A stretch of 64,000 nt of DNA from the NCBI GenBank assembly GCA_016179685.1, contig JACPCR010000061.1:28336-92335 (forward strand), in the 5' to 3' direction. A model generated the notes under the pieces. It saw only the letters and a program-made list of their open reading frames with translations. It had not been told where the DNA came from and ran no database searches. The number at the start of each line of letters is the position of its first letter. The stretch's first letter is position 1. The position numbers and the translations under genes were made by a program. Positions 5,316-31,184 of this stretch are shown here, piece after piece. The stretch is from Planctomycetota bacterium (GTDB taxonomy: Bacteria; Planctomycetota; PUPC01; JACPCR01).

Positions 5316-5365
5316 GGGAACACCGGTCCTGGGTTACGAAGATTCCGAAGCGCTCGCGTACGCTT

Positions 5366-5604
5366 AGCCGACGCGTGGTGGCAGGCGGCCACGCCTGCCT
5401 TCCCCTCCGAGGCGCGCACGCGTAGCCGACGCTTCCCAACGGGATGAACTCCGAGGGGGGGCGGACGCACAGCGACCGCGCTACCTGGCCCCCGGCGCGC
5501 TCGTGCGCGCAACGCGTAGGGGGAGCGGACGCACAGCGACCGCGCTACCTGGCCCCCGGCGCGCGTCGTAGCATGCGGCCGCGCCTGCCACCCCCTCCGG
5601 CGCG
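5366..5604. repeat. tandem direct repeats (about 65-bp period) in an intergenic region
   Basis: Exact 40-nt duplication gcggacgcacagcgaccgcgctacctggcccccggcgcgc at 5461-5500 and 5525-5564. It is flanked by degenerate copies of cgcgtag... and ggcggccacgcctgcc motifs. Confidence 0.7.
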
Positions 5605-5741
5605 CTGGCGCACTTCGGCTACGAAATGAAGATTATGCGTGGAGACTCGACTGGCAGGCAAGTCTCATCGGCGCGGGAATCCCGCCGGGGGGGCGCAGCG
5701 GAAAACTTTCACAAGCCAACTGAAGCCCTTCGGCTTTTGCA

Positions 5742-9056: not shown

Positions 9057-9068
9057 TTACCCCCATCC

Positions 9069-9116
9069 TAGTAGACGCGTTCGCAAGTGCACCCGCACCT
9101 GCGAACACATCTACTA
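9069..9116. repeat. palindromic hairpin element, family copy 1 (12-bp inner stem, accc loop, 7-bp outer stem)
   Basis: tagtaga-cgc-gttcgcaagtgc-accc-gcacttgcgaac-aca-tctacta. Inner and outer arms are perfectly complementary. The apex AAGTGCACCCGCACTT is shared with hairpins at 39317, 45594 and 45809. Confidence 0.7.
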
Positions 9117-9144
9117 TAGGAAACCCCAGCGAAATAGGGAAGCC

Positions 9145-9203
9145 CGATATTCCATAAGTGGCCAGTTCACAAGTGGTTAAATTTGAATGACTCTTGAATT
9201 TCG
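9145..9203. repeat. conserved 59-nt intergenic block, copy A
   Basis: cgatattccataagtggccagttcacaagtggttaaatttgaatgactcttgaatttcg; 55/59 identical to 45713-45771. Internal direct repeats aagtgg x2 and ttgaat x2. Sits 150 bp upstream of the aminotransferase ATG. Confidence 0.65.
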
Positions 9204-9353
9204 ATGGGGCTTCAAGAGCGAGTCACCCTATTTGCCAGACACCTCGTCTTGCGCCGTACCGAGTGCAATCCTGCCTGCTCCCCGTACAATGCTTTTCATT
9301 GTTTCCGGCAACGCGGAAATTGTTTCCCAGCTTTCTTGGTGGCGACGTCTTCC

Positions 9354-10649
9354 ATGGGGCACCCTGCAGGAAACGGGACATCGCCGGAAACTCTCGTTTC
9401 CCGCCGTGAGATGCTCGGCGCAGCCGCGGCCACGCTCGGCCTGCTGGCAGGCGGCGGGCTGTCCTCCGCGGCCGGCGGGGAAGAAGAGGACAGCCTCGAT
9501 TCGCTCCGGGGCCCCGCCGGCGTGCTCTGGGACCGAGTTCACAAACAGTTCCGGCTTCGCGGGGGACTCGCCTACCTCAACAACGGGTCCCTCGGCCCCT
9601 GCCCCGTCCAGGTGGTTCAGGCCGCCATCCAGGCCTGGCGCTCCCTCGAAGAAAACCCGGCGGATATGGCCTACGGGCCCCTTCTCGAGAAAATGGAAGC
9701 GGCCCGGACCCGCGCCGCAGGTTTCCTCGGCTGCGCCACGGAGGAATTGGCCGTCACCGGCAATACCACAGAGGGCATGAATGCCGTCGCCCAGGGCATA
9801 CGCCTCGAAGCGGGCGACCGCATCCTCACGACGGACCAGGAACACCCCGGGGGCCTGGCTGGCTGGGGATACCGCCAGAAGCACGAGGGCGTCCCGGTGG
9901 ACCTCGCGGCCCTGCCGACACCGCCAGCGAGCCCAGAGGCCATCGTCGAATCGATCCAACGAGGCCTCACGAAGGCAACACGGGTCATCAGCGTCAGCCA
10001 CGTCACCTATACGACCGGCCTCCGCATGCCCATCGAAGCCATTGCGAGCCTGGCCCGTGCGAACGGTGCGCTCCTGGTCGTTGACGGGGCGCAGGCCCCG
10101 GGGGTGCTGGACGTCGATGTCACACGCCTGGGGTGCGACGCCTACGCCACCAGCGCGCACAAGTGGATGCTCGCGCCTAAAGGCACCGGCCTGCTCTACG
10201 TCCGAAAAGAAAGTCAGGAAAGGATCGCGCCCCTCCTCCTCCAGCACGGATACCGGTCGTATACGGCCTCGACCGGCACCCGCAACGTTCCCGCCCTCAT
10301 CGGACTCGGCGCGGCCGTCGAGTTCCTCCAGCGGCTGGGGAAAATCGACATCGAACGCCGCGCCCTGACCCTGCGCACTCATCTCTACGAGGTGCTCCAG
10401 ACCCTTCCCGGCATCCAAGTGGTCAGCCCGCCCCCGGGCGACCTCGCCTCCAGCCTCCTGACCTTCACGCTCCCCAACGGGAAACAACCGGCAGCGGTCG
10501 CCAAGACTCTGGCCGAAGAGTATGGAGTCATCGTGCGTGTCATGTCCCACGGAAACGTACAAGGCATCCGCGTTTCCACCCACATTTACAATTCAGAAGC
10601 AGATTTGGACCGGCTGGTGTCCTCACTCCGCAAGGGGCTCGGCAAGTAG
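9354..10649 (+). CDS. class V aminotransferase (PLP-dependent, cysteine desulfurase / isopenicillin-N-epimerase-like) with Tat-type signal
   Basis: Twin-arginine motif SRREMLGAAAATLGLLAGG. Class V fold motifs LNNGSLGPCP, TTDQEHPG and the SAHKWMLAPKGTGLLY lysine-containing PLP site. ATG at 9354. Confidence 0.75.
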   Translation: MGHPAGNGTSPETLVSRREMLGAAAATLGLLAGGGLSSAAGGEEEDSLDSLRGPAGVLWDRVHKQFRLRGGLAYLNNGSLGPCPVQVVQAAIQAWRSLEENPADMAYGPLLEKMEAARTRAAGFLGCATEELAVTGNTTEGMNAVAQGIRLEAGDRILTTDQEHPGGLAGWGYRQKHEGVPVDLAALPTPPASPEAIVESIQRGLTKATRVISVSHVTYTTGLRMPIEAIASLARANGALLVVDGAQAPGVLDVDVTRLGCDAYATSAHKWMLAPKGTGLLYVRKESQERIAPLLLQHGYRSYTASTGTRNVPALIGLGAAVEFLQRLGKIDIERRALTLRTHLYEVLQTLPGIQVVSPPPGDLASSLLTFTLPNGKQPAAVAKTLAEEYGVIVRVMSHGNVQGIRVSTHIYNSEADLDRLVSSLRKGLGK

Positions 10650-10695
10650 CGAAGCCATGCACCTCAGCGAAGCGCATGGTGCATGGCTTCGCTAC
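10646..10695 (+). terminator. perfect 18-bp stem-loop directly after the aminotransferase stop (no U-tract)
   Basis: gtagcgaagccatgcacc / ggtgcatggcttcgctac arms with a 14-nt loop tcagcgaagcgcat. The loop near-duplicates part of the stem, allowing an alternative pairing. Starts 1 nt upstream of the TAG stop (10647-10649), overlapping the last codons, and continues into the 3' UTR. Confidence 0.4.
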
Positions 10696-10753
10696 TCCAT
10701 GGATTGAATTTCCGAAACTGTTACCCGAGTTCGCCGGTGGGTATCGACTTGTC

Positions 10754-10774
10754 TGACACCTGACACCTGACACC
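10754..10774. repeat. (TGACACC)x3 tandem heptamer immediately upstream of CDS 10788
   Basis: tgacacc tgacacc tgacacc followed by ttttt. Ends 14 nt before the ATG at 10788. Confidence 0.8.
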
Positions 10775-10787
10775 TTTTTCTCTGAAC

Positions 10788-12167
10788 ATGTCCTGGATTG
10801 AACCCTTCTTCCCCTATCACGACTGGCGAGGGCAGGTCTGGTTCGACCTCCTGGGCATCGGTTTTCTCTGCGTGTTCTGGGATACCCGGAAGTTGTTCTC
10901 GGTCCGGAATCTCGACTTGCTGGTGCTTTGCTCCTGGATTCCGCTGGGAGAATACGAGAAGGGCCCTCTGGCCGTAACGACCCTGCTGGGGTATCTGCCC
11001 CTCCTCTACCTCTGGCCGCGGCTGCTCTGGATGCTCCTGCGTCCCCCTCCCCCGCCACCCCGGCCCAACCTGCACGATCGCGCCCTCCACGTCCTGTCTT
11101 TCGTCCTGCTGGCCTACAGCATCGGCCTCACCCTCTCGGCGCCCTTCCCCTTCGGCCGAGTGGGACAGACCCGGTGGTGTCTCTCCGAGTCCTCGATCGT
11201 CGGCGTCCTCGGGGCCGACCAGTTTCTTCAGTGCCGGCCTCCCTACGGCCACCTTGCGGCATCACAGGAACGGCCCAAGACCATCTATGCCATCTACGGG
11301 CCGTCCTATTTCCTCTCCTTCGTGCCCGGCGTCCTTGCCGCCGGCGTAGGACGGCCGTTCACGGACTGGGCCGCCGCAGCGCGCTGGACCACCATTGCCC
11401 TGCTCCTGGTATCCTTTTTTGGGCTGCGCCGATTAGGCCATCGCCTGGGAGGGCCCCGTGCCGCCGCGACCCTGGGCTTCGCCTGGTCCGTCCTCCCTTA
11501 CCTCCACTCCGCGTCGTACTGGAGCTGGACCGGCAATCTCCTCCCGGCCGCCTTCACCATCCTGGTCTTGCTCGCCTCGGCCACCCGAGAAGGCGCGGCC
11601 CTCGGCCTCTCCGTGGCCAATGCCACGGCCGCCTCCTACTACCCGGCCGCCTGGCTGGCCCTCTGGCCCCTTGGGCTGCCACGCCGCGAAAAACTGGAAT
11701 TCTGGATTTACGCCTCCTGCCTCCTCCTCCTCTTCTTCGGCCTCGCCGTCGCCCAACCCCACGGAATGGCCAGATTCTGGAGTCAGGTCAGCACCTACCT
11801 CATCCCCGGCCGAATGCCCGAATGGCGCTACCAGTGGAGTCCCTACACTTACCATCCCTGGATGCACGCCTTGCGCTATGCCGCACTCGTCGCCTTCCTC
11901 CCGGTCGTGCTCTGGACCGGGTGGCGTCTCTTTTCCCGGTCCGCCGCACCCTCCCTTCAGACCCTCGCCGCCTCATCCGCGCTGCTCGAAATTCACGCAC
12001 AACTCTTTAAAATCCATGCTCCGGGCCGAATGACCCTCTGGTCGCTCCCCTTCCTCCTCGTGCTCCTCATCCCCTGCGGGCCCGACCCAGAAGCCGGAAG
12101 TGAAGGCCTTGGAGACCCGCTCGAAGAAACTCCACCCGCTGCCCGGCCTGACCTTGAACCGAGGTAA
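10788..12167 (+). CDS. hypothetical polytopic membrane protein (possible GT-C-like)
   Basis: 459 aa with about 10 hydrophobic helices, a Pro-rich loop and a C-terminal acidic tail. No diagnostic motif. Confidence 0.55.
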   Translation: MSWIEPFFPYHDWRGQVWFDLLGIGFLCVFWDTRKLFSVRNLDLLVLCSWIPLGEYEKGPLAVTTLLGYLPLLYLWPRLLWMLLRPPPPPPRPNLHDRALHVLSFVLLAYSIGLTLSAPFPFGRVGQTRWCLSESSIVGVLGADQFLQCRPPYGHLAASQERPKTIYAIYGPSYFLSFVPGVLAAGVGRPFTDWAAAARWTTIALLLVSFFGLRRLGHRLGGPRAAATLGFAWSVLPYLHSASYWSWTGNLLPAAFTILVLLASATREGAALGLSVANATAASYYPAAWLALWPLGLPRREKLEFWIYASCLLLLFFGLAVAQPHGMARFWSQVSTYLIPGRMPEWRYQWSPYTYHPWMHALRYAALVAFLPVVLWTGWRLFSRSAAPSLQTLAASSALLEIHAQLFKIHAPGRMTLWSLPFLLVLLIPCGPDPEAGSEGLGDPLEETPPAARPDLEPR

Positions 12168-12223
12168 ACCTTCCGCCGTCCGATTGCCTCCCGGATGCTA
12201 CAACCCTACTCCAAGGAGATGCC

Positions 12224-13600
12224 ATGCAACGCATCGCTCCTGTCCTCATCCTCCTCGCCAGCACGTGCCTGGCCCCCGGTGTCCCCGCTTCCGCAGAGCC
12301 TCCGCTCAATCCACTCGCCGGCGGCGGCCGATTCGCCGGCCTCTTCCTGAGCGATGAGCTGGCCGTGGAAATCAAGGTCGCGCCCGGCGGCTATGCCGGT
12401 TCCATACGGCTGGGAGACCAGGCCTTCACGCTCAAGGCCCGCGAGGTCGGCGGGACCCTCGAAGGTGGTTTCCAGAGCCAGGGACACGATTTCTCTTTCC
12501 AGGCGACCCTGAAAGACAGGACTCTGACCTTCACGACTGAAGGCACGACTTACACGCTCCAGAAGCAAAGCTTGAACCCCTTGGCCAGGCCGGCGCAGCC
12601 CGTGCGGCCCAGGCGGGACGTGCCGCAACGACCGCCGGAACAAAGCCCAGACGGCGAGGCGCCAGGCGACGCGCCAGGCGAGGTGGAACAGGTCGCGCCG
12701 GGCGGCGTGCCGGACGAAGCGCCGGGCGAGGCCGCCCGACCCCAGGCGGACGCCGGAGAAGGTCCGCGGACGGGCAAGACCTACCGACACCCCCTGGGCT
12801 TCAGCTTCGGATACCCGGCCACCTGGAACGTTCAGGAGACGCAAGCGGGGCTGCAGCTCGTGCCACCGGACGTTGCCACGAGCGCCCAGGGCGCCCTCGA
12901 AGCTTATCTGATCATCGGCCAGCCAGCCGCAGGCATCACGAAGCCCGACGATCCCCGCGTCGTCCAGTTCTTTGACCAGCAAGTGCTCAGCTTTGCCCCT
13001 TTTCTCCAGCGGTCCCAGAAGTTCGAGGTGTTGAAGACCGGCGGCCAGGCGGCGGCCGGCTACCTCTGGGAAGGGAAGAGCCCCATCGGCGTGCAGAGTC
13101 GCATGAAGGCCTACGTGGTCATTCTCAAGGGATACGCCATCGGTCTCATCGCCGTGGGCGCTACGGAGCGCATTGAGGCTCGGGAGGGGGTCCTCAGGGA
13201 AATGTTCACCACGTTCGGCTTTGGAGAGGGCGAGAAGGACCCCCGGCTGGTCGGCGCGTGGCGCTACGAGCACTACTATTCCACCAAAGACTTTTCCTCC
13301 ACCTCCATCAAGACCACGGTGCTCCGGCCAGACGGATCGTTCAGTTCGAGCGGCCAGACCATGGCCAACGCCCAGCACCGCGACGGCGGCGGCGACCTCA
13401 CCGGCTCGACGATGCTGGACACGGGCGAGAGCGCGGGCGACCGCGGCCGCTGGGGCGCGGGCGGCAGCAAGCTGTTCCTGATCTGGGACGACGGCTCCTA
13501 TGCGGAATACCAGTACCACGTCGAAGGCCAGCCCGGCGCCCGCAACCTGCTCCTCGTCACCCCCGACGGCAAGAAACAGCTCTGGACCGAAGTGCAGTAA
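12224..13600 (+). CDS. hypothetical secreted protein
   Basis: Signal peptide MQRIAPVLILLASTCLAPGVPASA. AAGGAG RBS 8 nt upstream. A Pro/Ala/Glu-rich linker, then a globular C-terminal domain. Confidence 0.6.
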   Translation: MQRIAPVLILLASTCLAPGVPASAEPPLNPLAGGGRFAGLFLSDELAVEIKVAPGGYAGSIRLGDQAFTLKAREVGGTLEGGFQSQGHDFSFQATLKDRTLTFTTEGTTYTLQKQSLNPLARPAQPVRPRRDVPQRPPEQSPDGEAPGDAPGEVEQVAPGGVPDEAPGEAARPQADAGEGPRTGKTYRHPLGFSFGYPATWNVQETQAGLQLVPPDVATSAQGALEAYLIIGQPAAGITKPDDPRVVQFFDQQVLSFAPFLQRSQKFEVLKTGGQAAAGYLWEGKSPIGVQSRMKAYVVILKGYAIGLIAVGATERIEAREGVLREMFTTFGFGEGEKDPRLVGAWRYEHYYSTKDFSSTSIKTTVLRPDGSFSSSGQTMANAQHRDGGGDLTGSTMLDTGESAGDRGRWGAGGSKLFLIWDDGSYAEYQYHVEGQPGARNLLLVTPDGKKQLWTEVQ

Positions 13601-13601
13601 G

Positions 13602-13630
13602 TTGACAGCATGGCCTGTATTTGCTAAGTT
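13602..13630 (+). promoter_or_regulatory. sigma70-type promoter for acs (TTGACA-N17-TAAGTT)
   Basis: ttgaca 13602-13607, 17-nt spacer, taagtt 13625-13630. A GAGGTGA RBS precedes the ATG at 13671. Confidence 0.5.
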
Positions 13631-13670
13631 TCCTGCGCTTTTCGTCGAGGTTCCCGTTTGAGGTGATCCC

Positions 13671-15653
13671 ATGAACCAGGAAGCGACGGCGTCAGCGGCT
13701 GAGAAATACTACCCTTCTCCCGACTTTGTCCGGAAGGCCTACGTCAGCAGCCTTCAGAACTACCAGGAGATGTATCGCCAATCGGTCCAGGACCCTGAGG
13801 GATTCTGGGCAAAGATTGCAGAGGAATACTACTGGCAGAAGAAATGGGACAAGGTCCATACCCACAACTTCAACCTCGACCGGGGCCCCATCGATCTGAA
13901 GTGGTTCATCGGTGCGAAAACGAACATCACCTACAACGTGCTGGACCGGCACCTCGAAGACCGAGGCGATCAGGTCGCCCTCCTCTGGGAAGGCAACGAC
14001 CTGGGCGAGGACCGGAAATTGACCTACCGGCAGCTCTTCCGGGAGGTGTGCCGATTCGCCAACGTGCTCAACGCCAAGGGGGTGAAGAAGGGCGACCGCG
14101 TGGCCATCTACATGCCCATGGTGCTCGAACTGCCGGTGGCCATGCTGGCCTGCGCCCGCATCGGCGCTGTCCATTCCGTCGTCTTCGGAGGTTTCTCCGC
14201 CGAGTCCCTGGCGGACCGCATCCTGGATTCCCGGGCAAAAATCCTGATCACCGCGGATGGGGTCATGCGCGGCAGCAAGGTCATCCCTCTCAAGCAAGTG
14301 GCCGATGAGGCCATGGCCACCTCCGAAAAGAGGGGTTTTCACGTCGAGGCCTGCATCGTTTATCAGCGCCTCGGCCAGAAAGCTCAAGCCCCGTGGAATC
14401 CCAAGAGAGACTCCTGGTGGCACGACCTCATGGCCAAAGCCAGCGACCAGTGCGACCCGGTCTGGATGGACGCCGAGGACCCCCTTTTCATGCTGTACAC
14501 CTCGGGCTCGACGGGCAAGCCGAAGGGCGTCTTGCACACCGTCGGCGGCTACATGGTCTATACGGGGGTGACGTTCAAGTACATCTTCGACTACCATCCG
14601 GGCGACATCTGGTGGTGTACCGCGGACATCGGCTGGGTCACCGGTCATAGCTACATCATCTACGGTCCCTTGAGCCAGGGCGCCATCTCCCTGATGTACG
14701 AGGGCACGCCGGTCCACCCGGACCCGGGCCGGTTCTGGGCCATCGTGGACAAGTACCAGGTCAACCAGATTTATACCGCGCCCACGGCCATCCGGGCGCT
14801 GATGAGCTTCGGCGACGACTGGGTGAAGAAGCACAGCCGGAAGTCGCTGCGTCTGCTGGGCACCGTGGGCGAGCCGATCAATCCGGAGGCCTGGCGGTGG
14901 TATCACCGCGTCGTGGGCGACGGCCGCTGCCCGGTGGTGGACACGTGGTGGCAGACGGAGACGGGGGGCATCTTGATCACGCCGCTGCCGGGCGCGTGGC
15001 CGCAGAAGCCGGGCTCGGCGACGCTGCCCTTCTTCGGCGTTATTCCGGCTGTTCTGGACGAGAAGGGCAACGAGCTTCAAGGCGAATGTTCGGGCCTCCT
15101 GGTGATCAAGAAGCCGTGGCCCGGCATGATGCGCACGGTCTACGGCGACCATGAGCGCTTCGAGAAGACCTACTTCGAGGCCTACAAGGGCTACTATTTG
15201 ACGGGCGACGGATGCCGCCGCGACGCGGACGGGTACTACTGGCTCACGGGCCGAGTGGACGACGTGATCAACGTGAGCGGACACCGGATCGGCACGGCGG
15301 AGGTGGAGAGTGCGCTGGTGAGCCACACGGCGGTGGCCGAAGCGGCCGTCGTCGGTTTCCCCCATCCCATCAAGGGCTTGGGCATCTATGCGTACGTTAC
15401 GCTGAAGGCGGGCCGGGAATACACGGCCGTGCTCAAGGACGAGCTCAAGAAACAGGTCCGCAAGGAGATCGGCCCCTTCGCCCAGCCGGACGTGATCCAC
15501 TGGGCGCCGGGCCTGCCCAAGACGCGGTCGGGGAAGATCATGCGCCGCATCCTCCGGAAGATTGCCGAGGGGCAGATTTCGGACCTGGGGGACACCACGA
15601 CGCTGGCCGATCCGGCGGTAGTGGACACGCTGCTCGCGAACAAAGGCAAGTGA
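13671..15653 (+). CDS. acs: acetyl-coenzyme A synthetase (AMP-forming)
   Basis: 660 aa with the conserved N-terminus ...[35 protein letters not shown]-binding motifs [27 protein letters not shown] and TWWQTETGG, and C-terminal [17 protein letters not shown]. Confidence 0.95.
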
Positions 15654-22200: not shown

Positions 22201-23636
22201 CCGGGGCGCTCGGATTCAAGGCCGTCCTTCTGGACCGCCGCTTCGATATCCGCAGGCATCCGACCCTCTGCCTGGACTATCGCGCAGAGCAACCTCTGGG
22301 CCTCTCACTCGCTGTACGGGTCGGCGGACAGTGGCAGCCCCTCGCGGCCGCATCCGCCCTCGGACTCGCCCTCGACGGCCAGTGGCACTCCGCGCAAATC
22401 AACCTGTCGAACTGGCTCGCCCGACGAAACGCCGCCCGGTTGCCGATCATCGAGGCCATCGGCCTGGCCGCTACGCCGAAGGAAAGCCCCGAGGAGACCG
22501 CCCTTTGGGTTGATAACCTGAGCCTTCCGGCCCAGGCCTTCCCCGCAGATACAGCGCCGCCGTCCATCGTTGCACGCACGCCCGGGCCGGAAGCTGACGC
22601 CGCTGCCCAGACGATCCAGTTCGAAATCCGGGACGAGGATAGCGGGCCGGACCTCGCCTCGCTGCGCATCGAGGTCGAAGGCCGCGTCTTCGACCTCAGC
22701 CATCCGGATGCGACCTATAAGCCGCTGGCTGGCAAGGAGGCGCTGCGCGGCGGCATCTTCTCCGTCCTGCTGAGACAACCCCCTGTGGACCGGAAAAAAA
22801 TTCGCTGCGGCATCCAGGCCAGGGACCGCGCTGGGCACGACCTGCCCGCGCCCGAGGAATGGACATGGACCATGGATTACCGGCAGGACGGGCAGCCGCC
22901 GCCAGCCCCGTTCGTCTCCTACCTGCCGAGCAGGCGCATGACCTGGGACGACTTCGAGAACACCATGGGGGAATGGAGCAGCCGCTCGGGCGCAGTGATG
23001 GAGCGAACGACCGCCAGCGCCGCCACGGGCCTGCACAGCCTCGAAGTCCGAAGCGGGAGCGCCTTTGCCGTCTATACCCCCTTTGACGCCAGCAAGTTCC
23101 CCGTCGTCCGCTTCGACTATTGCCTGAAGCCCGGCGCGAGCTTCGATTGGCTCGTCCGGATCGATAACACGAACTGGCAAATCCGGTGCGGGCCTGGCCG
23201 GCCGAGGGCGGACGTCCTCTCCGTGGTCCCCGGCATCGTGAGCGACGGGCAATGGCATCGGGCCGAGTTCGACCTGCTCGCTTGCCTGGAGAAACGGCCC
23301 GACCCGGGCGTCGATTTCATCGTCGAGCACCTGGCCACGCAGCACAGGGGAAACGCCGGATGCTGGCTCGACAACTTTACCCTGAGCGCCCGAGGTGAAA
23401 CCGAGCCTTTGTTCCAGTGGTCCCGGCCGGTGGACGCGACGGGAATTCGGGGCTACAGCTTCGTGCTGGACGAATCCGCGGACACCCTTCCCGACGAGGT
23501 CCTGGATACCAAGGAAACCAGCCATGCCTTCAAAGGGTTGAAGCCCGGGTCCCATGTCCTCCACGTGCGGGCGTGCGATGGCGCGGGCAACTGGGGACCG
23601 GCTGGACACGCGCAGGTGGAGGTGGTCAGGAATTAG
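19230..23636 (+). CDS. giant secreted hypothetical protein (1468 aa) with C-terminal fibronectin-III-like domain
   Basis: Signal peptide MKAQRSVLVAHYAGLALLGGLSLAAA. Start overlaps the folC stop (ATGA). Beta-rich Trp/Gly-rich composition. C-terminal IRGYSFVLDESADTLPDE...LKPGSHVLHVRACDGAGNWG resembles fn3. Confidence 0.7.
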   Translation: MKAQRSVLVAHYAGLALLGGLSLAAAESLAIPLPANFVIRGNLEFSGRTASPAHLEFQTGSNCIVRISLARDQVILEAEQPPQKTHLGAARLASPRPKKCTFTVCRDGEALAFLSPGYATGRWRLPGPEAPETLPTPEVGTRPAEEETWNLIVREGAGVRIADLRLQPTTPVEFSDDFMRSDEGSGTWNPLRGLWALDEIPYPTWSASPFRLKGTGPGVALTTSGFWFWHDYAMRCAVRPGGDSLGCGIALYAQGPSDMILFRWKRRNPREEDEPRHVQGALELLLVHDGEERLLASQEAWLDPSQWYELAAGVCEGQVCAFVDGIRLFQVSCPEATLGGIGLWALDGALFDDVEAKSFSPGLLAAPKNDPDEFLERLFGHRRVVVGERFARDALMQEWANAQGEWVSRPDPRGQLLWHIGLFGPRVRLRWDCSWKPGAIPDPVLWAMTTDGRDLSSGYLLRLGPETLLLRGDRTLGRGTLPAQIESLEWTRQDGRHTLRANGQTVLSAEDAEPAGAGKVGLLLPGTSGLILDAGRLTADSPACHDTTFGTAPVDWRAAAGVWDITSRWICTPKWSWFGGLSHEAAVIWSKRAFLGDQVIDLHSAVMMDFGAAGGYRRLGDINLSFCADGASLGSGYTLMYGGFNNTRTCLWRQGEVVAERSDRLYPDKSRGAHKNWYNLRAEKMGPSVRFYLADELILEYRDPQPLPGGHVALWTWDGGMMIPRVRIYAESEMTPPRETLFAAPDASPGSADEYRSREARIRDETGRACLRFVNPQSGGDFSSALPIGEFDALKTGVLSFDYRIPAEARLHLYLEANGRDFYVALNGPETPSEHAIRQATEVSGRRINVSALTGRVRRPARLASLPISADDCWHHAEIELADLLRPFFPRASAIRVRGVHLANWCNADYLMCGLTGNPAGCTLFLDDVRCRRGASAAVAGAAGAAAAPEPSDSYEADSGLWYPAEESPPFKMFLDAAPERERERALRIEAGALGFKAVLLDRRFDIRRHPTLCLDYRAEQPLGLSLAVRVGGQWQPLAAASALGLALDGQWHSAQINLSNWLARRNAARLPIIEAIGLAATPKESPEETALWVDNLSLPAQAFPADTAPPSIVARTPGPEADAAAQTIQFEIRDEDSGPDLASLRIEVEGRVFDLSHPDATYKPLAGKEALRGGIFSVLLRQPPVDRKKIRCGIQARDRAGHDLPAPEEWTWTMDYRQDGQPPPAPFVSYLPSRRMTWDDFENTMGEWSSRSGAVMERTTASAATGLHSLEVRSGSAFAVYTPFDASKFPVVRFDYCLKPGASFDWLVRIDNTNWQIRCGPGRPRADVLSVVPGIVSDGQWHRAEFDLLACLEKRPDPGVDFIVEHLATQHRGNAGCWLDNFTLSARGETEPLFQWSRPVDATGIRGYSFVLDESADTLPDEVLDTKETSHAFKGLKPGSHVLHVRACDGAGNWGPAGHAQVEVVRN

Positions 23637-23700
23637 GAGAGCGCTGCCTCAAACCGGCTCGTTCTCCGGATTGAAGCGCTTCCACACTTCCGAGAAGCAT

Positions 23701-24462
23701 ATGGCAAGAGTCCATGATCCTGGGAAGAAGAAACGGAGCACGGCACGAAGAGTTGCCAGGACGGTGAGAACTCGGCCGGTAGGATCGAAACCTGCCCCCA
23801 CCGGCGCACGCGGGAAGAACGCGGCAAGAATCCGAGGCATCGCTGAGGGACTCCGCCATCTCTACCCGGACGCCACCTGCGAGCTGCGCCACGATAACCC
23901 GCTCCAGCTCCTCGTCGCGACCATACTTTCGGCCCAATCCACTGACAAGAGGGTCAACCAAGTGACCGAAACGCTTTTCGCCCGTTATCAGACTGCGGAG
24001 GACTATGCACGGGCCGACCCTGCTGAGTTCGAACAGGAAATCCGGTCCACAGGCTTCTACCGCAATAAGACCCGAAGCGTGTTGGGCGCTGCTCGCCGCC
24101 TCGTCGAGGGTTACGGTGGCCGTGTGCCGGAAACGATGGAAGAGCTTCTGACGCTGCCGGGAGTAGCACGAAAGACGGCGAACGTCGTGCTGGGCACGGC
24201 CTTCAGCAAGCCGGCCGGCGTCGTCGTGGATACCCATGTCAAGCGCTTGGCCTGGCGTCTGGGCCTCTCGAACGAGAAGGTCCCGGAGAAAATCGAGCGG
24301 GACCTCATGGAGCGATTTCCCGTGAACGAATGGATTTTCATGGGGCATGCCCTGATCTGGCACGGTCGGAGGGTCTGTCATGCCCGTATGCCCAAATGTG
24401 GACAATGTGCCTTGGCGGGCGTGTGTCTGAAGCGCGGACTGGGGATGTCGATGAAGAGGTAA
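23701..24462 (+). CDS. nth: endonuclease III (DNA-(apurinic or apyrimidinic site) lyase)
   Basis: HhH-GPD motif LPGVARKTANVVLG with the D of VVDTHVKR, and the 4Fe-4S cluster CHARMPKCGQCALAGVC. ATG at 23701. Confidence 0.9.
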   Translation: MARVHDPGKKKRSTARRVARTVRTRPVGSKPAPTGARGKNAARIRGIAEGLRHLYPDATCELRHDNPLQLLVATILSAQSTDKRVNQVTETLFARYQTAEDYARADPAEFEQEIRSTGFYRNKTRSVLGAARRLVEGYGGRVPETMEELLTLPGVARKTANVVLGTAFSKPAGVVVDTHVKRLAWRLGLSNEKVPEKIERDLMERFPVNEWIFMGHALIWHGRRVCHARMPKCGQCALAGVCLKRGLGMSMKR

Positions 24463-24938
24463 ATGGCTGTATGCCCGTCTTCAATGACCCTCATCATTTC
24501 AATTTGACAGAAGGTATCGAAATTTAATGATATGGCAGTCGCCGCCACGGCTCGTTGTCTGGATTACGGTGTTCTGGTCAGCGACCGCGACGAGGCGCTT
24601 TTTAGATCCGTAGCCGGTCTCGAAGTCGTCAAGTTGGGTTAGACCGTCGCAGGCGTATACCCCCGGGACTTCCCGGCACGGCGGAGCAAGGTAACTGCTG
24701 AGTGGTCGTCACCGGAGGCCTGTTTCTGTGAGTCCCGAAGGGACGTCCGAAATGAGCCCAGGGCACCAGTTCGCCGAAGCCCCGCGAAGGCGAACGCAGC
24801 CCTGGGAAGGGAAGCGCATCAACCACAAGAGTCCCGTAGGGACGACAGAAGTTTTCGCTAAGGAGTTACGGAGCAAGAGCCTCATCATTTCAACCGGTAT
24901 GCCGCAGCGAGAGGCGCGACTGAATCTGAGTGACTCAC

Positions 24939-24967
24939 GTGACGGTGTCGAGTCGCTCCGGTATAAT
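24939..24967 (+). promoter_or_regulatory. candidate promoter (gtgacg-N17-TATAAT) upstream of the MBL-fold gene, overlapping a palindrome
   Basis: Perfect tataat at 24962-24967. A -35-like gtgacg lies 17 nt upstream. The gtgactcacgtgac palindrome is adjacent and may be an operator. Confidence 0.35.
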
Positions 24968-25032: not shown

Positions 25033-25809
25033 TTGAAGATCACCATCCTGGGTTCTGGGACTTCGCACGGGGTGCCGATGATCGGCTGTTACTGCCCCGT
25101 CTGCACCTCCTCGAACCCCCAGAACCGGCGATTCCGTCCCTCCGTCCTGGTCAGCCAGGGGGAGCGGAACATCTTGGTCGACGCTGGCCCGGACATCCGC
25201 TTGCAGGCCATCACCTTCCGCGTGAACCATCTAGATGCCGTGATGTTCACTCATTCCCATGCGGACCACATTCTTGGCGTCGATGACCTCCGGCTCTACA
25301 ATTACCGGAGCGGCAAGAAGCTGCCCTGCTACGCCGACGCCGCAACTTTGAAAAGGCTCGCCACGGTCTTCGATTACGCGTTCGACGACCGAGTAACCGA
25401 GCAGAGCCGGCCGATGCTCCTCCCGGTTGAAATTCAGGGTCGGTTCGACCTTTTTGGACTCTCGGTGTCGCCTTTGGAGCTTTATCACGGGAAGCTCCAA
25501 ATCTTGGGATTCCTGTTCGAGGATGCGGCCGGCCATCGGTTCGGCTACGCTACGGATTGCAGTTTCGTCCCGGCCCAGGCCGAGGAGCGACTGCGAGGAG
25601 TCGATTTGCTCGTCCTGGATGCCCTGCGCTATGATCCTCATCCGACGCACTTCAGCCTGGCGCAGGCCGTCGAGGTGGCCCGTAAACTGTCGCCCCGGCA
25701 AACCTTATTCACCCATATCACGCACCAGCTCGAACAGGGGACCGTCAATGCCAGCCTCCCGCCCGAGATTCAGCTTGCCTTTGACGGGCAGGTGATCGAT
25801 TTCCCATGA
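25033..25809 (+). CDS. MBL-fold metallo-hydrolase, PhnP-like
   Basis: ILGSGTSHGVP, Cys cluster GCYCPVC, and HxHxDH (FTHSHADHILG). The track start is TTG at 25033, so the exact start is uncertain. Confidence 0.7.
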   Translation: MKITILGSGTSHGVPMIGCYCPVCTSSNPQNRRFRPSVLVSQGERNILVDAGPDIRLQAITFRVNHLDAVMFTHSHADHILGVDDLRLYNYRSGKKLPCYADAATLKRLATVFDYAFDDRVTEQSRPMLLPVEIQGRFDLFGLSVSPLELYHGKLQILGFLFEDAAGHRFGYATDCSFVPAQAEERLRGVDLLVLDALRYDPHPTHFSLAQAVEVARKLSPRQTLFTHITHQLEQGTVNASLPPEIQLAFDGQVIDFP

Positions 25810-25938
25810 GTCCGCGGCGGCGGCAGCGCGGGGGAGACTCTTGCAGCAGCCGAGGCAGCCGCTGGATGTCTCGCCCGGCAAGAAGGTGGGGAGGCTGGCC
25901 CCGCCGAATGGGTGGCCAATCCAGAGGTCTGAACGGTC

Positions 25939-28704
25939 ATGCTGGCCGACATTCTTCATCGTGAAATCCTTCCGAGGGTGGAGAAGCCCAGCCGTTACCT
26001 CGGCACGGAGCTGAATACGGTCCGTAAGGACCCTGCCTGCGTGGATTTCCGGATTTGCCTGGCTTTTCCCGACAGCTACGACATCGGCCTGGGCAACCTC
26101 GGGCTGCAGATTCTTTACCACATTCTGAACCGGCAGCCGCGTGTCTGGGCTGAACGCGTTTATGCGCCGGGCCTGGACATGGAGGCGCAGCTCCGCCGAC
26201 GTGGCCTGCCCCTCTTCAGCCTGGAGAGCCGGACGCCGCTCGACCAGTTCGACGCCATCGGTTTCACGCTCCAGTGGGAGCTGACCTACACGAACATTTT
26301 GAATCTGATCGATATGGCTGGCCTTCCCGTGCTCGCCCGGGAACGGGACGAGCGCCATCCCGTTCTTCTGGCAGGCGGGCCTTGCGTGTTCAATCCCGAA
26401 CCTTTATGCGATTTCATGGATGCCTTCGTCATGGGCGATGGCGAAGAGGTTGTACTCGAGGTCGCCGAGGCCCTTGTCGATGCCAAGGGAAGCAGCCGCG
26501 GCGCGCAGCTCGAACGACTCGCTCGAATTCCCGGCGTCTATGTGCCCGCCCTCTACCCCATGCGCCCAACGGAGGATGGGTCGCTCATCATGCCGGAGGA
26601 CGCCCGCCCCATCGTCAAGCGCACGGTCGCCGCCCTGGACACGGCCGCGTTCCCCACGGAATACATCGTCCCCTACACCCGACAGATTCACGACCGCGTC
26701 AGCCTCGAAGTCCTCCGCGGCTGCACGCAGGGCTGCCGGTTCTGCCAGGCGGGCATGGTCACGCGGCCCGTCCGCGAGCGCACGCTTCCGGATCTCGACC
26801 GGCTCATGGAGGAGACCATGCGGAAGACCGGTTACGAGGAAATCTCGCTGGTGAGCCTCAGCACCTGCGACTACAGCCAGGTCAAGACGCTGGTCCAGCA
26901 GAGCGTGGCGAGGGCCGTTCCGGAAGGGGTTTCCGTCTCGCTCCCTTCGCTGCGTCTCGATTCCTTTTCCGTCGAGATGGCGGACATGATCTCGGTGATG
27001 GGAAAAAGCGGGCTGACCTTCGCGCCCGAGGCGGCGACGAACCGGATGAGGGCGGTCATCAACAAGTGGATACCGGACGAAGACCTGCTGGAGATGGCCC
27101 GGGAGGCCTATGAGCGCGGCTGGGACCACATCAAGCTCTACTTCATGATCGGATTGCCGACGGAGCGGGAGGAGGACGTTCTGGCCATCGCCGACCTGGC
27201 CAACCGGGTCCTCGGGGTGGGCAAGTCAGTCCTGCGCAAGGCGCGGCTGAACCTGGGGGTCTCCACCTTCTGCCCGAAGCCGCACACGCCATTCCAGTGG
27301 GATCGGCAGATTCTCCTGGAGGAGACGGAAGCGAAGCAGGACCTGTTGATGCGAGGTCTTCGGCCGGGTATCAAATTTGGACGGCACGACGCCCGGGAGA
27401 GCTTTCTCGAGGGGGTGCTCTCTCGGGGTGATCGGCGGACGGGCCGGCTGCTCCTCGAAGCGCACCGTCTGGGTTGCCGCTTCGACGGCTGGCGTGAGCA
27501 CCTCGACTGGTCGAAGTGGCAGGAAGCTTTCCGCCGCTGGGGCTTCGACGCGGCGGACCAGCTTCGGGCCCGCCGGCTCTCCGAGCCTCTGCCCTGGGAT
27601 CACATCGATAGCCTTGTCCCGAAGAGCTGGCTCATAGCGGACTACTGGCGATCCCGCGGTCTCGTGTGGCAGGGCGACTGCCGCCATGCTCGTTGCAATC
27701 AATGCGGCGTCATCGACCGAGAAAAAGACCTCTGCGTATCCATGTTGCGGAAGAGCCACAAGGACCGGAAGGCCGAGAATGCCCGCCAGTTCCCGCGGAT
27801 CGAGCGGCCGCCAGAACCCCCGCCAGCCGCCAGGTTGCGCCTCCGCTTCGCACGCCGCGGGCTCGTCCGGCTGCTCTCTCACCTTGAAATGATGAACATG
27901 TTCCTCCGGGCCATCCGGCGCGCTCGATTGCCGGTCAGCTACACCCAAGGTTTCAACCCTGGCCCCAGGGTGGCCTTCAGTTGTGCCCTTCCGGTAGGCC
28001 TCGAAACCGAGGGCGACTACATGGACATCCACCTCCGGGCAGCGGTGCCGCCTGAAGAGGCCCGGGAGCGGCTCAACGCTGTATTGCCGGAGGGCTTTGA
28101 AATTCTCCGGGCAGCGGAGGTGCCACTGAGAAGTCCCGCGCTCATGGCGGTCGTCGCGGGCGAGCGATACCTCGCCCGCATCGAGGGGCCCGTCCGACGG
28201 AGCCCGGAGGCGCTGGCGGACGCCGCCCCTGAAGTGGAAGGGGAAGGAGGTGGCAGCGCGGCCGGCGCGGCGGCATGTCCATCGAAAGACCTTCTCGATA
28301 GGATTCTGGGCGCTGCCAGGTGCATGAAAAGCCGGGATGCCCTCTGGGTGGACAAGGAAAGCAAGAGAGGGAGAGTCCGCCGGGAAAATCTCCTCGGATC
28401 GATCGAAGAAATTCGGGCCATTCGGGAGAGCTCGGGGCGCCTGGCCGTTGAAATGCTCCTGCTCAAGCAAGGCGAGACCAAGGCGAGTGCGAGGCAGGTC
28501 CTCACCGCCCTCGCGCCTGAAATCGCTTTCGAGGACTGGCGCATCGTCAAGCTCGAAACCTATGTTCGCACTCCCTCCGGCCTGGCGGGCCCCATCGATG
28601 CGCCGGACGCGCTCCGGCCCGGCGGGCCCGGCCCGGCCATCGTGCCGGATTCGTCCGGCACGGAATCCCATCCGGCGCAGCCCGCCTCCCTTTCAGCTCG
28701 GTAA
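25939..28704 (+). CDS. radical SAM enzyme with B12-binding-like N-domain fused to a DUF2344-type C-domain (TIGR03960/TIGR03936-like fusion)
   Basis: CxxxCxxC (LRGCTQGCRFCQAG) about 250 aa in, preceded by a Rossmann-like B12-binding-type domain. C-terminal about 300 aa matches the radical-SAM-linked DUF2344 pattern. 921 aa. Confidence 0.75.
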   Translation: MLADILHREILPRVEKPSRYLGTELNTVRKDPACVDFRICLAFPDSYDIGLGNLGLQILYHILNRQPRVWAERVYAPGLDMEAQLRRRGLPLFSLESRTPLDQFDAIGFTLQWELTYTNILNLIDMAGLPVLARERDERHPVLLAGGPCVFNPEPLCDFMDAFVMGDGEEVVLEVAEALVDAKGSSRGAQLERLARIPGVYVPALYPMRPTEDGSLIMPEDARPIVKRTVAALDTAAFPTEYIVPYTRQIHDRVSLEVLRGCTQGCRFCQAGMVTRPVRERTLPDLDRLMEETMRKTGYEEISLVSLSTCDYSQVKTLVQQSVARAVPEGVSVSLPSLRLDSFSVEMADMISVMGKSGLTFAPEAATNRMRAVINKWIPDEDLLEMAREAYERGWDHIKLYFMIGLPTEREEDVLAIADLANRVLGVGKSVLRKARLNLGVSTFCPKPHTPFQWDRQILLEETEAKQDLLMRGLRPGIKFGRHDARESFLEGVLSRGDRRTGRLLLEAHRLGCRFDGWREHLDWSKWQEAFRRWGFDAADQLRARRLSEPLPWDHIDSLVPKSWLIADYWRSRGLVWQGDCRHARCNQCGVIDREKDLCVSMLRKSHKDRKAENARQFPRIERPPEPPPAARLRLRFARRGLVRLLSHLEMMNMFLRAIRRARLPVSYTQGFNPGPRVAFSCALPVGLETEGDYMDIHLRAAVPPEEARERLNAVLPEGFEILRAAEVPLRSPALMAVVAGERYLARIEGPVRRSPEALADAAPEVEGEGGGSAAGAAACPSKDLLDRILGAARCMKSRDALWVDKESKRGRVRRENLLGSIEEIRAIRESSGRLAVEMLLLKQGETKASARQVLTALAPEIAFEDWRIVKLETYVRTPSGLAGPIDAPDALRPGGPGPAIVPDSSGTESHPAQPASLSAR

Positions 28705-28713
28705 GCCGCGATC

Positions 28714-29661
28714 ATGAGCCGAACTTTGAAGCTTCCATTACTGCAACCGGAGAGGGACCTGTCGCGCGAGCGCAAGCCGGACTGGCTTCGCGTGCGTTTT
28801 CCGGGCGGCGGGGAGTATCCGCGCCTGGCCAGTCTCTTCACACGCCTCAGGCTGCACACCGTCTGCGAGAGCGCCCATTGTCCGAACATGGGCGAGTGCT
28901 GGGCACACGGCACGGCCACCTTCATGATCCTCGGAAACGTGTGTACCCGAAGTTGTGGCTTCTGCGCTGTTCCGACGGGCAGGCCGCAGGGGCTCGATCT
29001 CGGAGAGCCTGCCCGCGTCGGCGAGGCCGTCGAGAGCCTCCGTCTCGACTACGTGGTCATCACGTCCGTGAATCGCGACGAGCTTCCTGACGGAGGCGCC
29101 AGCCTCTTCGCCGCCACGGTCCGGGAAATTCGACGCCGTTGCTCCCAGACCCGCGTCGAGCTGCTGATTCCCGACTTCATGGGCAACGCGCAGGCGCTCG
29201 CCGAGGTGATCGAAGCTGCGCCGGACGTGCTCAATCACAACCTGGAAACGGTCCCGCGGCTCTACCCCTGGATGCGCCCCCAGGCCAAGTTCACCCGGTC
29301 ACTCGAACTGCTGCGCCGGGCCAAGGCCATGGCCCCTGGCCTGCCGTCCAAGTCCGGATTCATGGTCGGAGCCGGCGAGGCCATGAAGGAGCTCCTCGAT
29401 GCCATGGGACAGGTCGCCGACACCGGCTGCGATATCCTGACCATCGGCCAGTACCTCCGGCCGACGAAGGAACACCATCCGGTCTTCAAGTATTACCACC
29501 CGGACGAATTCGACGAGATCAGGCGGCGGGGACTCGCCATGGGTTTCCGACACGTCGAATCTGGGCCCCTGGTCCGCAGTTCCTACCATGCCTGGGAACA
29601 GGCGAAAGCCATGGAAAATTCAGACCCGCGGATTCCCTGTCCCGGGAGGCCGACGGTCTGA
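28714..29661 (+). CDS. lipA: lipoyl synthase
   Basis: CESAHCPNMGEC, then the radical-SAM CTRSCGFC, and conserved FMVGAGE and SGPLVRSSYHA. Confidence 0.92.
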   Translation: MSRTLKLPLLQPERDLSRERKPDWLRVRFPGGGEYPRLASLFTRLRLHTVCESAHCPNMGECWAHGTATFMILGNVCTRSCGFCAVPTGRPQGLDLGEPARVGEAVESLRLDYVVITSVNRDELPDGGASLFAATVREIRRRCSQTRVELLIPDFMGNAQALAEVIEAAPDVLNHNLETVPRLYPWMRPQAKFTRSLELLRRAKAMAPGLPSKSGFMVGAGEAMKELLDAMGQVADTGCDILTIGQYLRPTKEHHPVFKYYHPDEFDEIRRRGLAMGFRHVESGPLVRSSYHAWEQAKAMENSDPRIPCPGRPTV

Positions 29662-29700
29662 TGCGCAAGCGAGGTCTTTCATGATGCGGGAGGGTTGAAC

Positions 29701-30756
29701 ATGTCGATGGATGGGCTGAATGAACTGGGTGAGCGGATTCTGGCGGGCGGCGAGCCCGCCACGGAAGAAGAGGCCGTTCAAATCCTGGAGGCGGACCCTT
29801 CGGAGGTGTTCGAGCTGGCGGCCTGGGCGAACCGCATTCGCAAGCAATTCAAGGGTGACAAGGTCCACCTCTGTGCCATCATCAACGCCAAGTCGGGAGG
29901 CTGTCCGGAAGACTGCACCTTTTGCGCCCAGTCGGCCCATTACGACACCGGGGTGCAGCGCCACAATTTTCTGGGCCGGGAGGAGGTGCTTCGCGCCGCC
30001 CGCGATGCCCGCATGAGCGGAGCCCAGGCTCTCGGCATCGTCACCGCCTGGCGCGGCCTCAAGGACGGACCCGTGCTCGATGAGGTCTGCCAGCGCATCC
30101 GCGAACTGGCAGAAAGCGGGATAGTGCGGGCCGACGCGTCCCTCGGCATCATCGAGAGTCCGGAGGTGGCCCAACGACTGAAGGACTCGGGCCTGCACTG
30201 TTACAACCACAACTTGGAGACCGCCCGGAGCCACTTTCCCAACATCTGTTCCACGCATACCTTCGACGATCGCATCCGGACCATTCACCATCTCAAAACT
30301 GCCGGCCTAAAGGTCTGTTCCGGTGGGATTTTCGGGATGGGTGAGACGGTCCGGCAGCGCGTCGAATTGGCGCTGGAGCTCCGCCGGCTCGACGTCGACA
30401 TCGTGCCGCTCAACTTCCTGCACCGCATTGTTGGCACGCCCCAGGAGAAGAACGAGCCCTTGCCGCCCCTCGAAATCCTCAAGACCATTGCGATGTTTCG
30501 CTTCGTGCTTCCGCGCAAGGAGATCATGATCGCCGGCGGACGCGAAGTGAATCTCCGGGACCTTCAGAGCCTCATCTTTCATGCGGGCGCCAGCGCCCTC
30601 ATGGTGGGGAACTACCTGACGACCCAGGGCCGCGGCGCCCGCGCCGATCTCCAGATGCTCAAAGACCTGGGACTCGACCCGAAGTGGCCCGGATGGGACC
30701 ACGACGGCGAGGCGGCTCGTGAGGCCGGCGTGGCGCTGGCCGCCACACCGACGTAA
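29701..30756 (+). CDS. bioB: biotin synthase
   Basis: CPEDCTFCAQS radical-SAM motif, NHNLET, and the Cys-containing GLKVCSGGIFGMGE. A GGGAGGG RBS precedes the ATG at 29701. Confidence 0.9.
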   Translation: MSMDGLNELGERILAGGEPATEEEAVQILEADPSEVFELAAWANRIRKQFKGDKVHLCAIINAKSGGCPEDCTFCAQSAHYDTGVQRHNFLGREEVLRAARDARMSGAQALGIVTAWRGLKDGPVLDEVCQRIRELAESGIVRADASLGIIESPEVAQRLKDSGLHCYNHNLETARSHFPNICSTHTFDDRIRTIHHLKTAGLKVCSGGIFGMGETVRQRVELALELRRLDVDIVPLNFLHRIVGTPQEKNEPLPPLEILKTIAMFRFVLPRKEIMIAGGREVNLRDLQSLIFHAGASALMVGNYLTTQGRGARADLQMLKDLGLDPKWPGWDHDGEAAREAGVALAATPT

Positions 30757-30791
30757 GTTCTTCGTTGCTCGAGCACAGAAATCCGCCCACC

Positions 30792-31184
30792 ATGTCCGAT
30801 ACGCCACAACCTGCCAGCGGCAGGAGAATTCTCGTCATCGCCGAGATGTTCTTCGCCTCCAAGCTCAAGGGCGAGGTCCAAAAGGCCGGTTACGAGTACG
30901 TGCCCGCAGCGGCCGAGAAATCGGCCCTCGAGAAGGCGGGGTCCCTCAGGCCCGACGCCATTGTGCTCGATCTCGCCAAGACACGATTCGACGTGCCCGG
31001 CTTCCTCTCGCGCCTGCGAGCCGAACCGGAGCTCTCCGCCATCCCCGTGATCGGCTTCAGCGGCCATCTCGACACCCAGCGGATGCAGGAAGGACAAGAG
31101 AAGGGCTGTACCCTGGTCGTCAGCAACGGCCAAATCACCGGAAATTTTCCCTCGGTCCTTCAGAAGGCGCTCCCGAAAGGTTGA
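30792..31184 (+). CDS. stand-alone response-regulator receiver (CheY-like) domain protein
   Basis: RILVIAEM (acidic pocket), phospho-acceptor-like D in AIVLDL, and a later conserved K. No output domain. Confidence 0.55.
   Translation: MSDTPQPASGRRILVIAEMFFASKLKGEVQKAGYEYVPAAAEKSALEKAGSLRPDAIVLDLAKTRFDVPGFLSRLRAEPELSAIPVIGFSGHLDTQRMQEGQEKGCTLVVSNGQITGNFPSVLQKALPKG

Follow-up and report, generated by a model that had tools for sequence, protein, structure and literature searches.

What does an uncharacterised radical S-adenosylmethionine (SAM) enzyme do beside the genes for lipoyl synthase (lipA) and biotin synthase (bioB)? The question is raised by a 64,000-nucleotide stretch of a Planctomycetota genome (assembly GCA_016179685.1, contig JACPCR010000061.1; hereafter the window), where five plus-strand genes follow one another in close succession at positions 25033-31184: a metallo-beta-lactamase-fold (MBL) hydrolase, a radical SAM protein fused to a DUF2344 domain (hereafter the fusion, F in gene orders), lipA, bioB and a receiver-like open reading frame (ORF). 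A sequence-only reading of this DNA had taken the adjacency to lipA and bioB as a hint that the fusion shares a cofactor with their products, repairs their clusters or performs related chemistry. On balance, we lean towards another answer, namely that the fusion is a radical SAM enzyme directed at RNA, its gene lying, in one lineage, among co-regulated iron-sulfur (Fe-S) and radical SAM genes, and that it is probably not a lipoate or biotin helper.

Family membership and cysteine motifs of the fusion

The fusion scored 673.1 bits against TIGR03960 (cut-off 462.3; residues 9-599 against model positions 2-605), 171.2 bits against TIGR03936 (cut-off 71.9) and 148.2 bits against Pfam DUF2344 (cut-off 23.8), and an NCBI protein listed as 'TIGR03960 family B12-binding radical SAM protein [Planctomycetes bacterium]' matched it at 100% identity. 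Its fused architecture is that of most relatives, family members of different phyla are 50-60% identical to it, and a DUF2344 profile search gave 12,708 clusters at 50% identity. A literature search for functional studies of TIGR03960, TIGR03936, DUF2344 or PF10105 found none in the literature covered. Judged by its sequence, the fusion is unremarkable within TIGR03960/TIGR03936, a very large and uncharacterised family, and shows every defining feature of it that was tested.

Conservation was read from an alignment of relatives at 50-76% identity, 16 at first and later 60, and from a wider set of 78 sequences of many phyla at 38-100% identity. Besides the radical SAM motif (Table 1), a second cysteine motif follows the barrel: C581, C586 and C589 were invariant in all 78 sequences, and a fourth cysteine came within 30 residues of this triad in 73 of them, mostly as CG[VI]C. 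In the window fusion this fourth cysteine is displaced, with nine intervening residues against two in the family. The second cysteine cluster that the sequence-only reading had suggested looking for is present, and it is a property of the family. No cysteine before residue 262 was invariant in the alignment of relatives, and in the Pfam search the fusion matched Radical_SAM_N2 and did not match PF02310, which is recorded for a few relatives. C310 was considered as a further, fifth ligand and ruled out, being invariant in close relatives only and replaced elsewhere by Gly, Ser or Ala.

A TruA-like fold is predicted for the DUF2344 domain

The full-length AlphaFold2 model of the fusion, built from the 60-sequence alignment, had a predicted local distance difference test score (pLDDT) of 88.7 and a predicted template-modelling score (pTM) of 0.89. 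Foldseek comparison with the PDB placed the methylase MgmA (9ccb, E 2e-14) and the cobalamin-dependent radical SAM enzymes CysS, TokK and OxsB first, together with the B12-independent AprD4, followed by MiaB, MtaB and RimO (E about 1e-10, template-modelling score (TM) about 0.6, root-mean-square deviation 5-6 Å, about 450 columns), while the C-terminal part of the same model matched TruA, PUS3 and Pus1. Searched by sequence profile, the fusion gave weak radical SAM matches only among PDB sequences (9ccb, E 2e-6).

Residues 622-921 were also modelled separately (pLDDT 86.4). The top 24 PDB matches of this DUF2344 model consisted of TruA, PUS3 and Pus1 structures and of trypanosomal mitoribosome-assembly chains (6sga/9hny, 6sga being a small-subunit assemblosome), with E values down to 7e-9 and TM values of 0.5-0.59; against TruA, PUS3 and Pus1 the ranges were 7e-9 to 6e-5 and 0.45-0.59. 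The mitoribosome chains are catalytically inactive, pseudouridine-synthase-like assembly factors. The DUF2344 profile returned TruA alone from the PDB sequences, at an insignificant E value of 0.35. Pfam assigns DUF2344 to the pseudouridine synthase clan (PMC7955657).

TruA carries its catalytic Asp on the loop that follows strand 2, within the sequence GRTD of the Escherichia coli protein. The loop after strand 2 of DUF2344 reads S-x-G-F-H-P-x-P-K, with no Asp or Glu at the conserved positions of 55 sequences, so that the catalytic residue has no counterpart there. Since hhalign gave nothing useful for the DUF2344 alignment against E. coli TruA (13 columns, probability 0.2), this comparison follows a register set by the order of secondary-structure elements and not by superposition. 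Because the conserved loop lacks an acidic residue, we read DUF2344 as a probable non-catalytic RNA-recognition module. The predicted TruA-type fold suggests RNA as the substrate, rather than lipoyl or biotin chemistry or cluster repair.

Gene neighbourhoods in other phyla and in the close clade

Other phyla were scanned with the family alignment, one genome per species, and the best 80 of at least 600 matches were analysed; this is not a random sample and contains no planctomycete. The 80 loci, 38-58% identical to the fusion, came from Desulfobacterota, Bacillota, Actinomycetota, Nitrospirota, Hydrogenedentota, Myxococcota and others. In 49 of them the next gene downstream, in the same orientation, encodes RNase E/G, the neighbour that the sequence-only reading had mentioned as reported for this family. 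About 20 loci ran on into rplU, rpmA and obg (L21, L27 and Obg), and some had rnpA-yidC neighbours or PBP2-rodA upstream. Neither lipA, bioB, the MBL gene nor nth occurred within 8 kb of the fusion at any of the 80 loci. In 16 of the 80 loci (the 80 being L008-L087; e.g. L053, 3519-4223) the radical SAM gene ends before DUF2344, which is encoded by the next gene, and this argues that the two halves work as a pair, fused or split.

A different picture emerged among relatives at least 60% identical to the window fusion (the close clade), which probably belong to the same planctomycete or Planctomycetes-Verrucomicrobia-Chlamydiae (PVC) lineage as the window. In 8 of the 12 lineages of this clade, lipA and the fusion lay no more than three genes apart, in four gene orders (F-lipA, F-bioB-lipA, lipA-x-F and MBL-lipA-x-F) and between unrelated flanks (Table 1). 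Since the adjacency recurs in relatives, the arrangement of three adjoining radical SAM genes in the window is not due to chance. Further neighbours of the fusion in the clade were NadA, IspH, MiaB, an AmmeMemoRadiSam radical SAM protein, RicT, Nth and a KamA-like radical SAM protein; LipA, BioB, NadA, IspH, MiaB, RicT and Nth are [4Fe-4S] or SAM-dependent enzymes. Beside metagenomic relatives at 52-59% identity neither lipA/bioB nor RNase E/G was found, and their commonest neighbour resembles, as judged by eye, an acyl-CoA dehydrogenase.

The trio F-ispH-ricT was seen in L132 and L133 and also in L131, where ispH and ricT are separated by two genes, and the ricT product matches the NCBIfam entry 'regulatory iron-sulfur-containing complex subunit RicT'. 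The RicT complex is tied to RNase Y-dependent RNA processing in Bacillus.

Collectively, the link to lipA and bioB is limited to one clade, and the family-wide context is RNA processing and ribosome biogenesis. A neighbourhood kept by no relative, which the sequence-only reading had named as counting against it, is not what was seen: lipA and/or bioB stand beside the fusion in most relatives at or above 60% identity, in rearranged orders and with unrelated flanks, and at none of the 80 loci of other phyla. The shared cofactor of that reading survives only loosely, as a co-clustering of Fe-S enzymes, and its cluster repair or related chemistry was not supported, the link being limited to one clade and the TruA-type fold pointing to RNA.

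Inherited order, cluster supply or co-regulation

The neighbourhood might be an inherited gene order with neither functional nor regulatory meaning, lipA-bioB having landed downstream of the fusion in the clade ancestor and being still unseparated from it. Such a history would agree with the confinement of the link to relatives at or above 60% identity, with the lack of such neighbours in the 52-59% relatives, with nth, which has no evident link to the fusion and is also kept near it, upstream, in two lineages (the window and L006), and with the lack of a common upstream motif, no 10-mer being common to three or more of 12 upstream regions. It accords poorly with lipA staying within three genes of the fusion in four orders among entirely different flanks, with a BioB type that was swapped in place, with very tight spacing (9 nt in the window) and reading frames that overlap by 4 or 16 nt in L130, L002, L006 and L003, and with the strong enrichment of Fe-S enzymes among the neighbours. 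We consider inherited order alone an unlikely explanation.

Another explanation, which takes up the sequence-only reading, holds that the fusion aids sulfur-inserting enzymes, by resupply or repair of their sacrificial clusters or sulfur, or that it is a further sulfur-inserting enzyme using the same supply. The lipA/bioB adjacency that survives rearrangement in most close-clade lineages would suit it, as would two non-orthologous BioB types, 35% identical, that both adjoin the fusion; moreover MiaB, from a third sulfur-inserting radical SAM family, is encoded three genes away in L131, the fusion model superposes on MiaB and RimO, and its second cysteine motif is conserved. In a study of Type II BioB, a sulfur-supplying helper is reported to have been sought and not found (PMC10813225). 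The second cysteine motif is, however, family-wide and therefore not specific to lipA-linked members, and the N-terminal domain of the fusion lacks the three-cysteine site of methylthiotransferases. A TruA-like domain has no obvious role toward a protein-bound cluster, the neighbours NadA, IspH and Nth do not sacrifice clusters, and lipA and bioB are absent from the surroundings of all 80 loci of other phyla, where the gene mostly precedes RNase E/G, in many cases together with ribosomal genes. This explanation is in our view very improbable, and the fusion is probably neither a participant in lipoate or biotin synthesis nor a repairer of the clusters involved. Still less credence is given to a bolder version, in which TIGR03960/TIGR03936 would be a fourth radical SAM enzyme that uses an auxiliary cluster and possibly inserts sulfur, acting on RNA, and the planctomycete operons with LipA, BioB and MiaB would share one dedicated route of sulfur or cluster resupply.

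We return to an RNA-directed enzyme placed among co-regulated genes. The fusion comprises a B12-binding-like domain, a barrel with the CX3CX2C motif, the four-cysteine site, a basic linker and a TruA-like domain without the catalytic Asp. In this picture a tRNA or rRNA bound by the TruA-like module would be modified at a nucleotide, possibly by cobalamin-dependent methylation, through a 5'-deoxyadenosyl radical from the radical SAM core, and the four-cysteine site after the barrel may carry a second cluster. The likeliest reason for the lineage-specific clustering would be co-regulation of enzymes that have the same needs for clusters, SAM and reductant.

Several points weigh against this interpretation. 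A neighbourhood rich in Fe-S proteins would be equally expected of a factor acting on Fe-S enzymes. Because two lineages keep nth close to the fusion as well, some of the synteny may reflect inherited order, and the sample of the best 80 loci is selective and free of planctomycetes. The missing 10-mer also counts here, and the Rfam scan upstream of the blocks gave no SAM, cobalamin or other riboswitch; with neither a shared motif nor a riboswitch found, co-regulation is something that we infer.

The TIGR03960/TIGR03936 family is among the largest radical SAM families without an assigned function, and the present analysis provides a testable lead for it, in which the enzyme would be directed to RNA by a TruA-like domain and has a candidate second metal site. 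No lipB, lplA or bioADF was seen in the ORFs annotated up to about 15 kb to each side of the block, so that the genes are grouped by enzyme class and not by pathway. A lineage that groups Fe-S and radical SAM genes in this way bears on questions of regulation and cluster supply. The window itself makes a modest contribution, as one further family member in a lineage-specific context.

The gene block and its surroundings

The coordinates and scores in Table 1 bear out three consecutive radical SAM genes on one strand with short gaps. The spacers between the five genes measure, in order, 129, 9, 33 and 8 nt; the fusion does stand directly upstream of lipA, at 9 nt from its stop codon to the lipA start and not at the 10 bp first given. 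No convincing terminator was found by a scan inside the block, and MBL-fusion-lipA-bioB-pseudo-receiver is most likely a single planctomycete transcription unit. The gene nth (23554-24462) lies upstream, a MetE-like gene follows downstream on the opposite strand, and the remainder of the window encodes functions unrelated to the block.

Table 1. Features of the block, with positions in the window, and gene orders around the fusion gene (F) in the window and in relatives, with positions in the respective locus
Feature or lineage (identity to window fusion)	Position	Strand	Evidence or gene order
Sigma-70-like promoter candidate GTGACG-17-TATAAT	24939..24967	+	Consensus scan, 10/12 matches; pattern match only
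MBL-fold metallohydrolase, PhnP / RNase Z / Apyc1-like subgroup	25033..25809	+	Pfam Lactamase_B_2 144 bits; HSHADH motif
Radical SAM fusion, 921 aa (TIGR03960 + TIGR03936/DUF2344)	25939..28704	+	Hidden Markov model (HMM) scores; Pfam Radical_SAM_N2 + Radical_SAM + DUF2344
B12-binding-like (Rossmann/flavodoxin-like) N-terminal domain, fusion aa 55-203	26101..26547	+	Pfam Radical_SAM_N2, 200 bits
Radical SAM cluster motif C262-x3-C266-x2-C269	26722..26745	+	Invariant, 78/78 family members sampled
Second Cys motif C581-x4-C586-x2-C589-x9-C599, candidate auxiliary [4Fe-4S] or metal site	27679..27735	+	Cys conservation
DUF2344 domain, fusion aa 631-883, predicted TruA-type pseudouridine-synthase fold without catalytic Asp	27829..28587	+	Pfam DUF2344; domain model
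lipA, lipoyl synthase	28714..29661	+	TIGR00510 358 bits, cut-off 310
bioB, biotin synthase, non-canonical auxiliary-cluster type	29695..30756	+	TIGR00433 392.5 bits, cut-off 225; BATS domain
Receiver-like (flavodoxin-fold) ORF, 139 aa	30765..31184	+	Pfam Response_reg 23.1 bits, gathering score 30.2
Window			MBL-F-lipA-bioB-receiver-like
L002 (76%)			MBL-F-lipA-bioB
L129 (67%)			MBL-F-lipA...
L003 (65%)			F-bioB-lipA-receiver-like
L088 / L110 (63 / 61%)			RNase Z-like-MBL-F-bioB, then ahcY on other strand
L130 (63%)			MBL-F-lipA-bioB
L006 / L127 (60%)			nth-YfhO-F-lipA
L131 (61% over 83% of length)	6005-14928		lipA-TolB-like-F-ispH-AmmeMemoRadiSam radical SAM-miaB-ricT
L134 (62% over 80% of length)	4327-10067		dnaG-rpoD-nadA-MBL-lipA-(55 aa)-F
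L132, L133	L132 8001-12532; L133 3283-7713		F-ispH-ricT
L128 (55%)			No lipA, bioB or other listed neighbour

The spacer between nth and the MBL gene, 570 bp of lower GC content, contains a match to the Acido-Lenti-1 RNA (Rfam RF01687) at 24731-24806 on the minus strand, directed away from the block, which scored 44.9 bits against a gathering score of 37 (E 7e-9) and has a 32-nt insertion in its first hairpin loop; the whole-window Rfam scan at default filters did not return it. About 15 kb upstream of the block, and not adjacent to it, a class V aminotransferase is encoded at 9204-10649 (+), with a cysteine-desulfurase (SufS-family) score of 173 bits, under the cut-off of 475.

The lipA and bioB products

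The window LipA has all its motifs, CX4CX5C (CESAHCPNMGEC), CX3CX2C (CTRSCGFC) and the C-terminal RSSY (VRSSYHA). The true start of bioB is probably the ATG at 29701. In E. coli the [2Fe-2S] cluster of Type I BioB is bound by C97, C128, C188 and R260, whereas Type II enzymes, with a [4Fe-5S] cluster, have Cys at E. coli position 43, Ser at 97 and Cys at 128 and 188; variants with G, A or D at position 97 are listed as uncharacterised groups (PMC10813225). By an alignment read against the residue descriptions of that study, the window BioB retains C188 and R260; opposite S43, C97 and C128 of the E. coli enzyme it has Cys, Gly and Asp, respectively. Since it lacks Cys at the C97 and C128 positions it is not a canonical Type I enzyme, and these residues do not give it the standard Type II pattern either.

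The BioB proteins of L003 (2750-3856) and L088 (10714-11853) show the Type I pattern with both Cys and are 35% identical to the window BioB, with which that of L002 (6512-7561) is grouped. Both BioB lineages pass the TIGR00433 model and adjoin the fusion.

The MBL hydrolase as a possible partner

The sequence-only reading had called the upstream hydrolase PhnP-like. As a PhnP it scored 117.6 bits against TIGR03307 (cut-off 272), so that this name is not upheld and membership of the MBL fold alone is established; its best curated match, NF038231 (GPMC-system MBL), was also under the cut-off (308 bits against 360), and a literature search for 'GPMC system' gave no results. Orthologues at 56-77% identity adjoin the fusion in L002, L088, L129 and L130, and L134 has a Lactamase_B-family gene at a distance of two genes, so that an MBL gene was seen in six lineages. 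In L088 a second, RNase Z-like MBL gene stands directly upstream of the first (6194-6967 and 7152-7928).

These observations allow for a third explanation, compatible with an RNA-directed fusion, in which the MBL protein, as a PhnP / RNase Z-like phosphodiesterase, would be the functional partner of the fusion in place of RNase E/G, the pair acting in RNA processing with lipA and bioB as passengers. In the window and the four lineages with orthologues the MBL gene immediately precedes the fusion, and in L134 it lies two genes upstream; its weak family matches are to RNase Z, PhnP and cyclic-nucleotide phosphodiesterases, the extra gene of L088 is RNase Z-like, and RNase E/G is the standard neighbour of the fusion in other phyla. 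Every nuclease-family score of the MBL protein is nevertheless far under its cut-off, the L134 gene adjoins lipA and not the fusion, and an orthologue occurred in none of the 80 loci of other phyla. We regard this partnership as distinctly unlikely.

The receiver-like gene

The last gene of the block had been taken for a stand-alone receiver domain, a description that its Pfam score, below the gathering score, does not sustain. Read at the conserved positions of CheY, the protein has AE/AD in place of the acidic pair and lacks the conserved Lys, and it keeps the phospho-acceptor Asp. An orthologue in L003 (4839-5216), 51% identical and encoded after lipA, has Glu at the acceptor position. On these residues the protein is probably a pseudo-receiver that travels with lipA and bioB.

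Comparison with known systems

NfuA and IscU are helper proteins for LipA. BsaP/Rv1590 is described as a helper of mycobacterial BioB (PMC11099021). The only likeness of the fusion to these proteins is a gene beside lipA or bioB whose product possibly aids turnover, and no sequence or fold relationship to them was found; the fusion is a radical SAM enzyme in its own right, with an RNA-type domain. Within its own family, the fusion differs in context: elsewhere TIGR03960/TIGR03936 genes usually stand upstream of RNase E/G, often with rplU-rpmA-obg following, and in the window clade they stand with lipA, bioB and Fe-S genes.

The methylthiotransferases MiaB, MtaB and RimO are sulfur-inserting radical SAM enzymes that act on tRNA or on ribosomal protein S12. 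Like the fusion they are built of three modules: the N-terminal domain is flavodoxin-like, a radical SAM barrel follows, and the C-terminal domain serves for substrate binding and binds RNA in MiaB and MtaB. In contrast to MiaB and RimO, the fusion has no three-cysteine auxiliary-cluster site in its N-terminal domain, its C-terminal domain is TruA-like instead of TRAM, its second cysteine motif comes after the barrel, and it gave no match to TIGR00089 or UPF0004. In the model its architecture appears most like that of RNA-modifying radical SAM enzymes such as MiaB, yet the fusion stands outside their membership.

In TruA, PUS3 and Pus1 the likeness extends over the whole predicted DUF2344 domain, which superposes on the TruA fold; a difference is that DUF2344 comes with a radical SAM enzyme, either in one polypeptide or from an adjacent gene. 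Over residues 1-600 of the fusion, both structure and sequence matched best to the class B (B12-binding-domain) radical SAM enzymes MgmA (9ccb), CysS, TokK and OxsB, and the NCBI family name 'B12-binding' is further common ground. They have no pseudouridine-synthase-like domain, whereas the fusion has one. The fusion may be cobalamin-dependent in the manner of MgmA or TokK.

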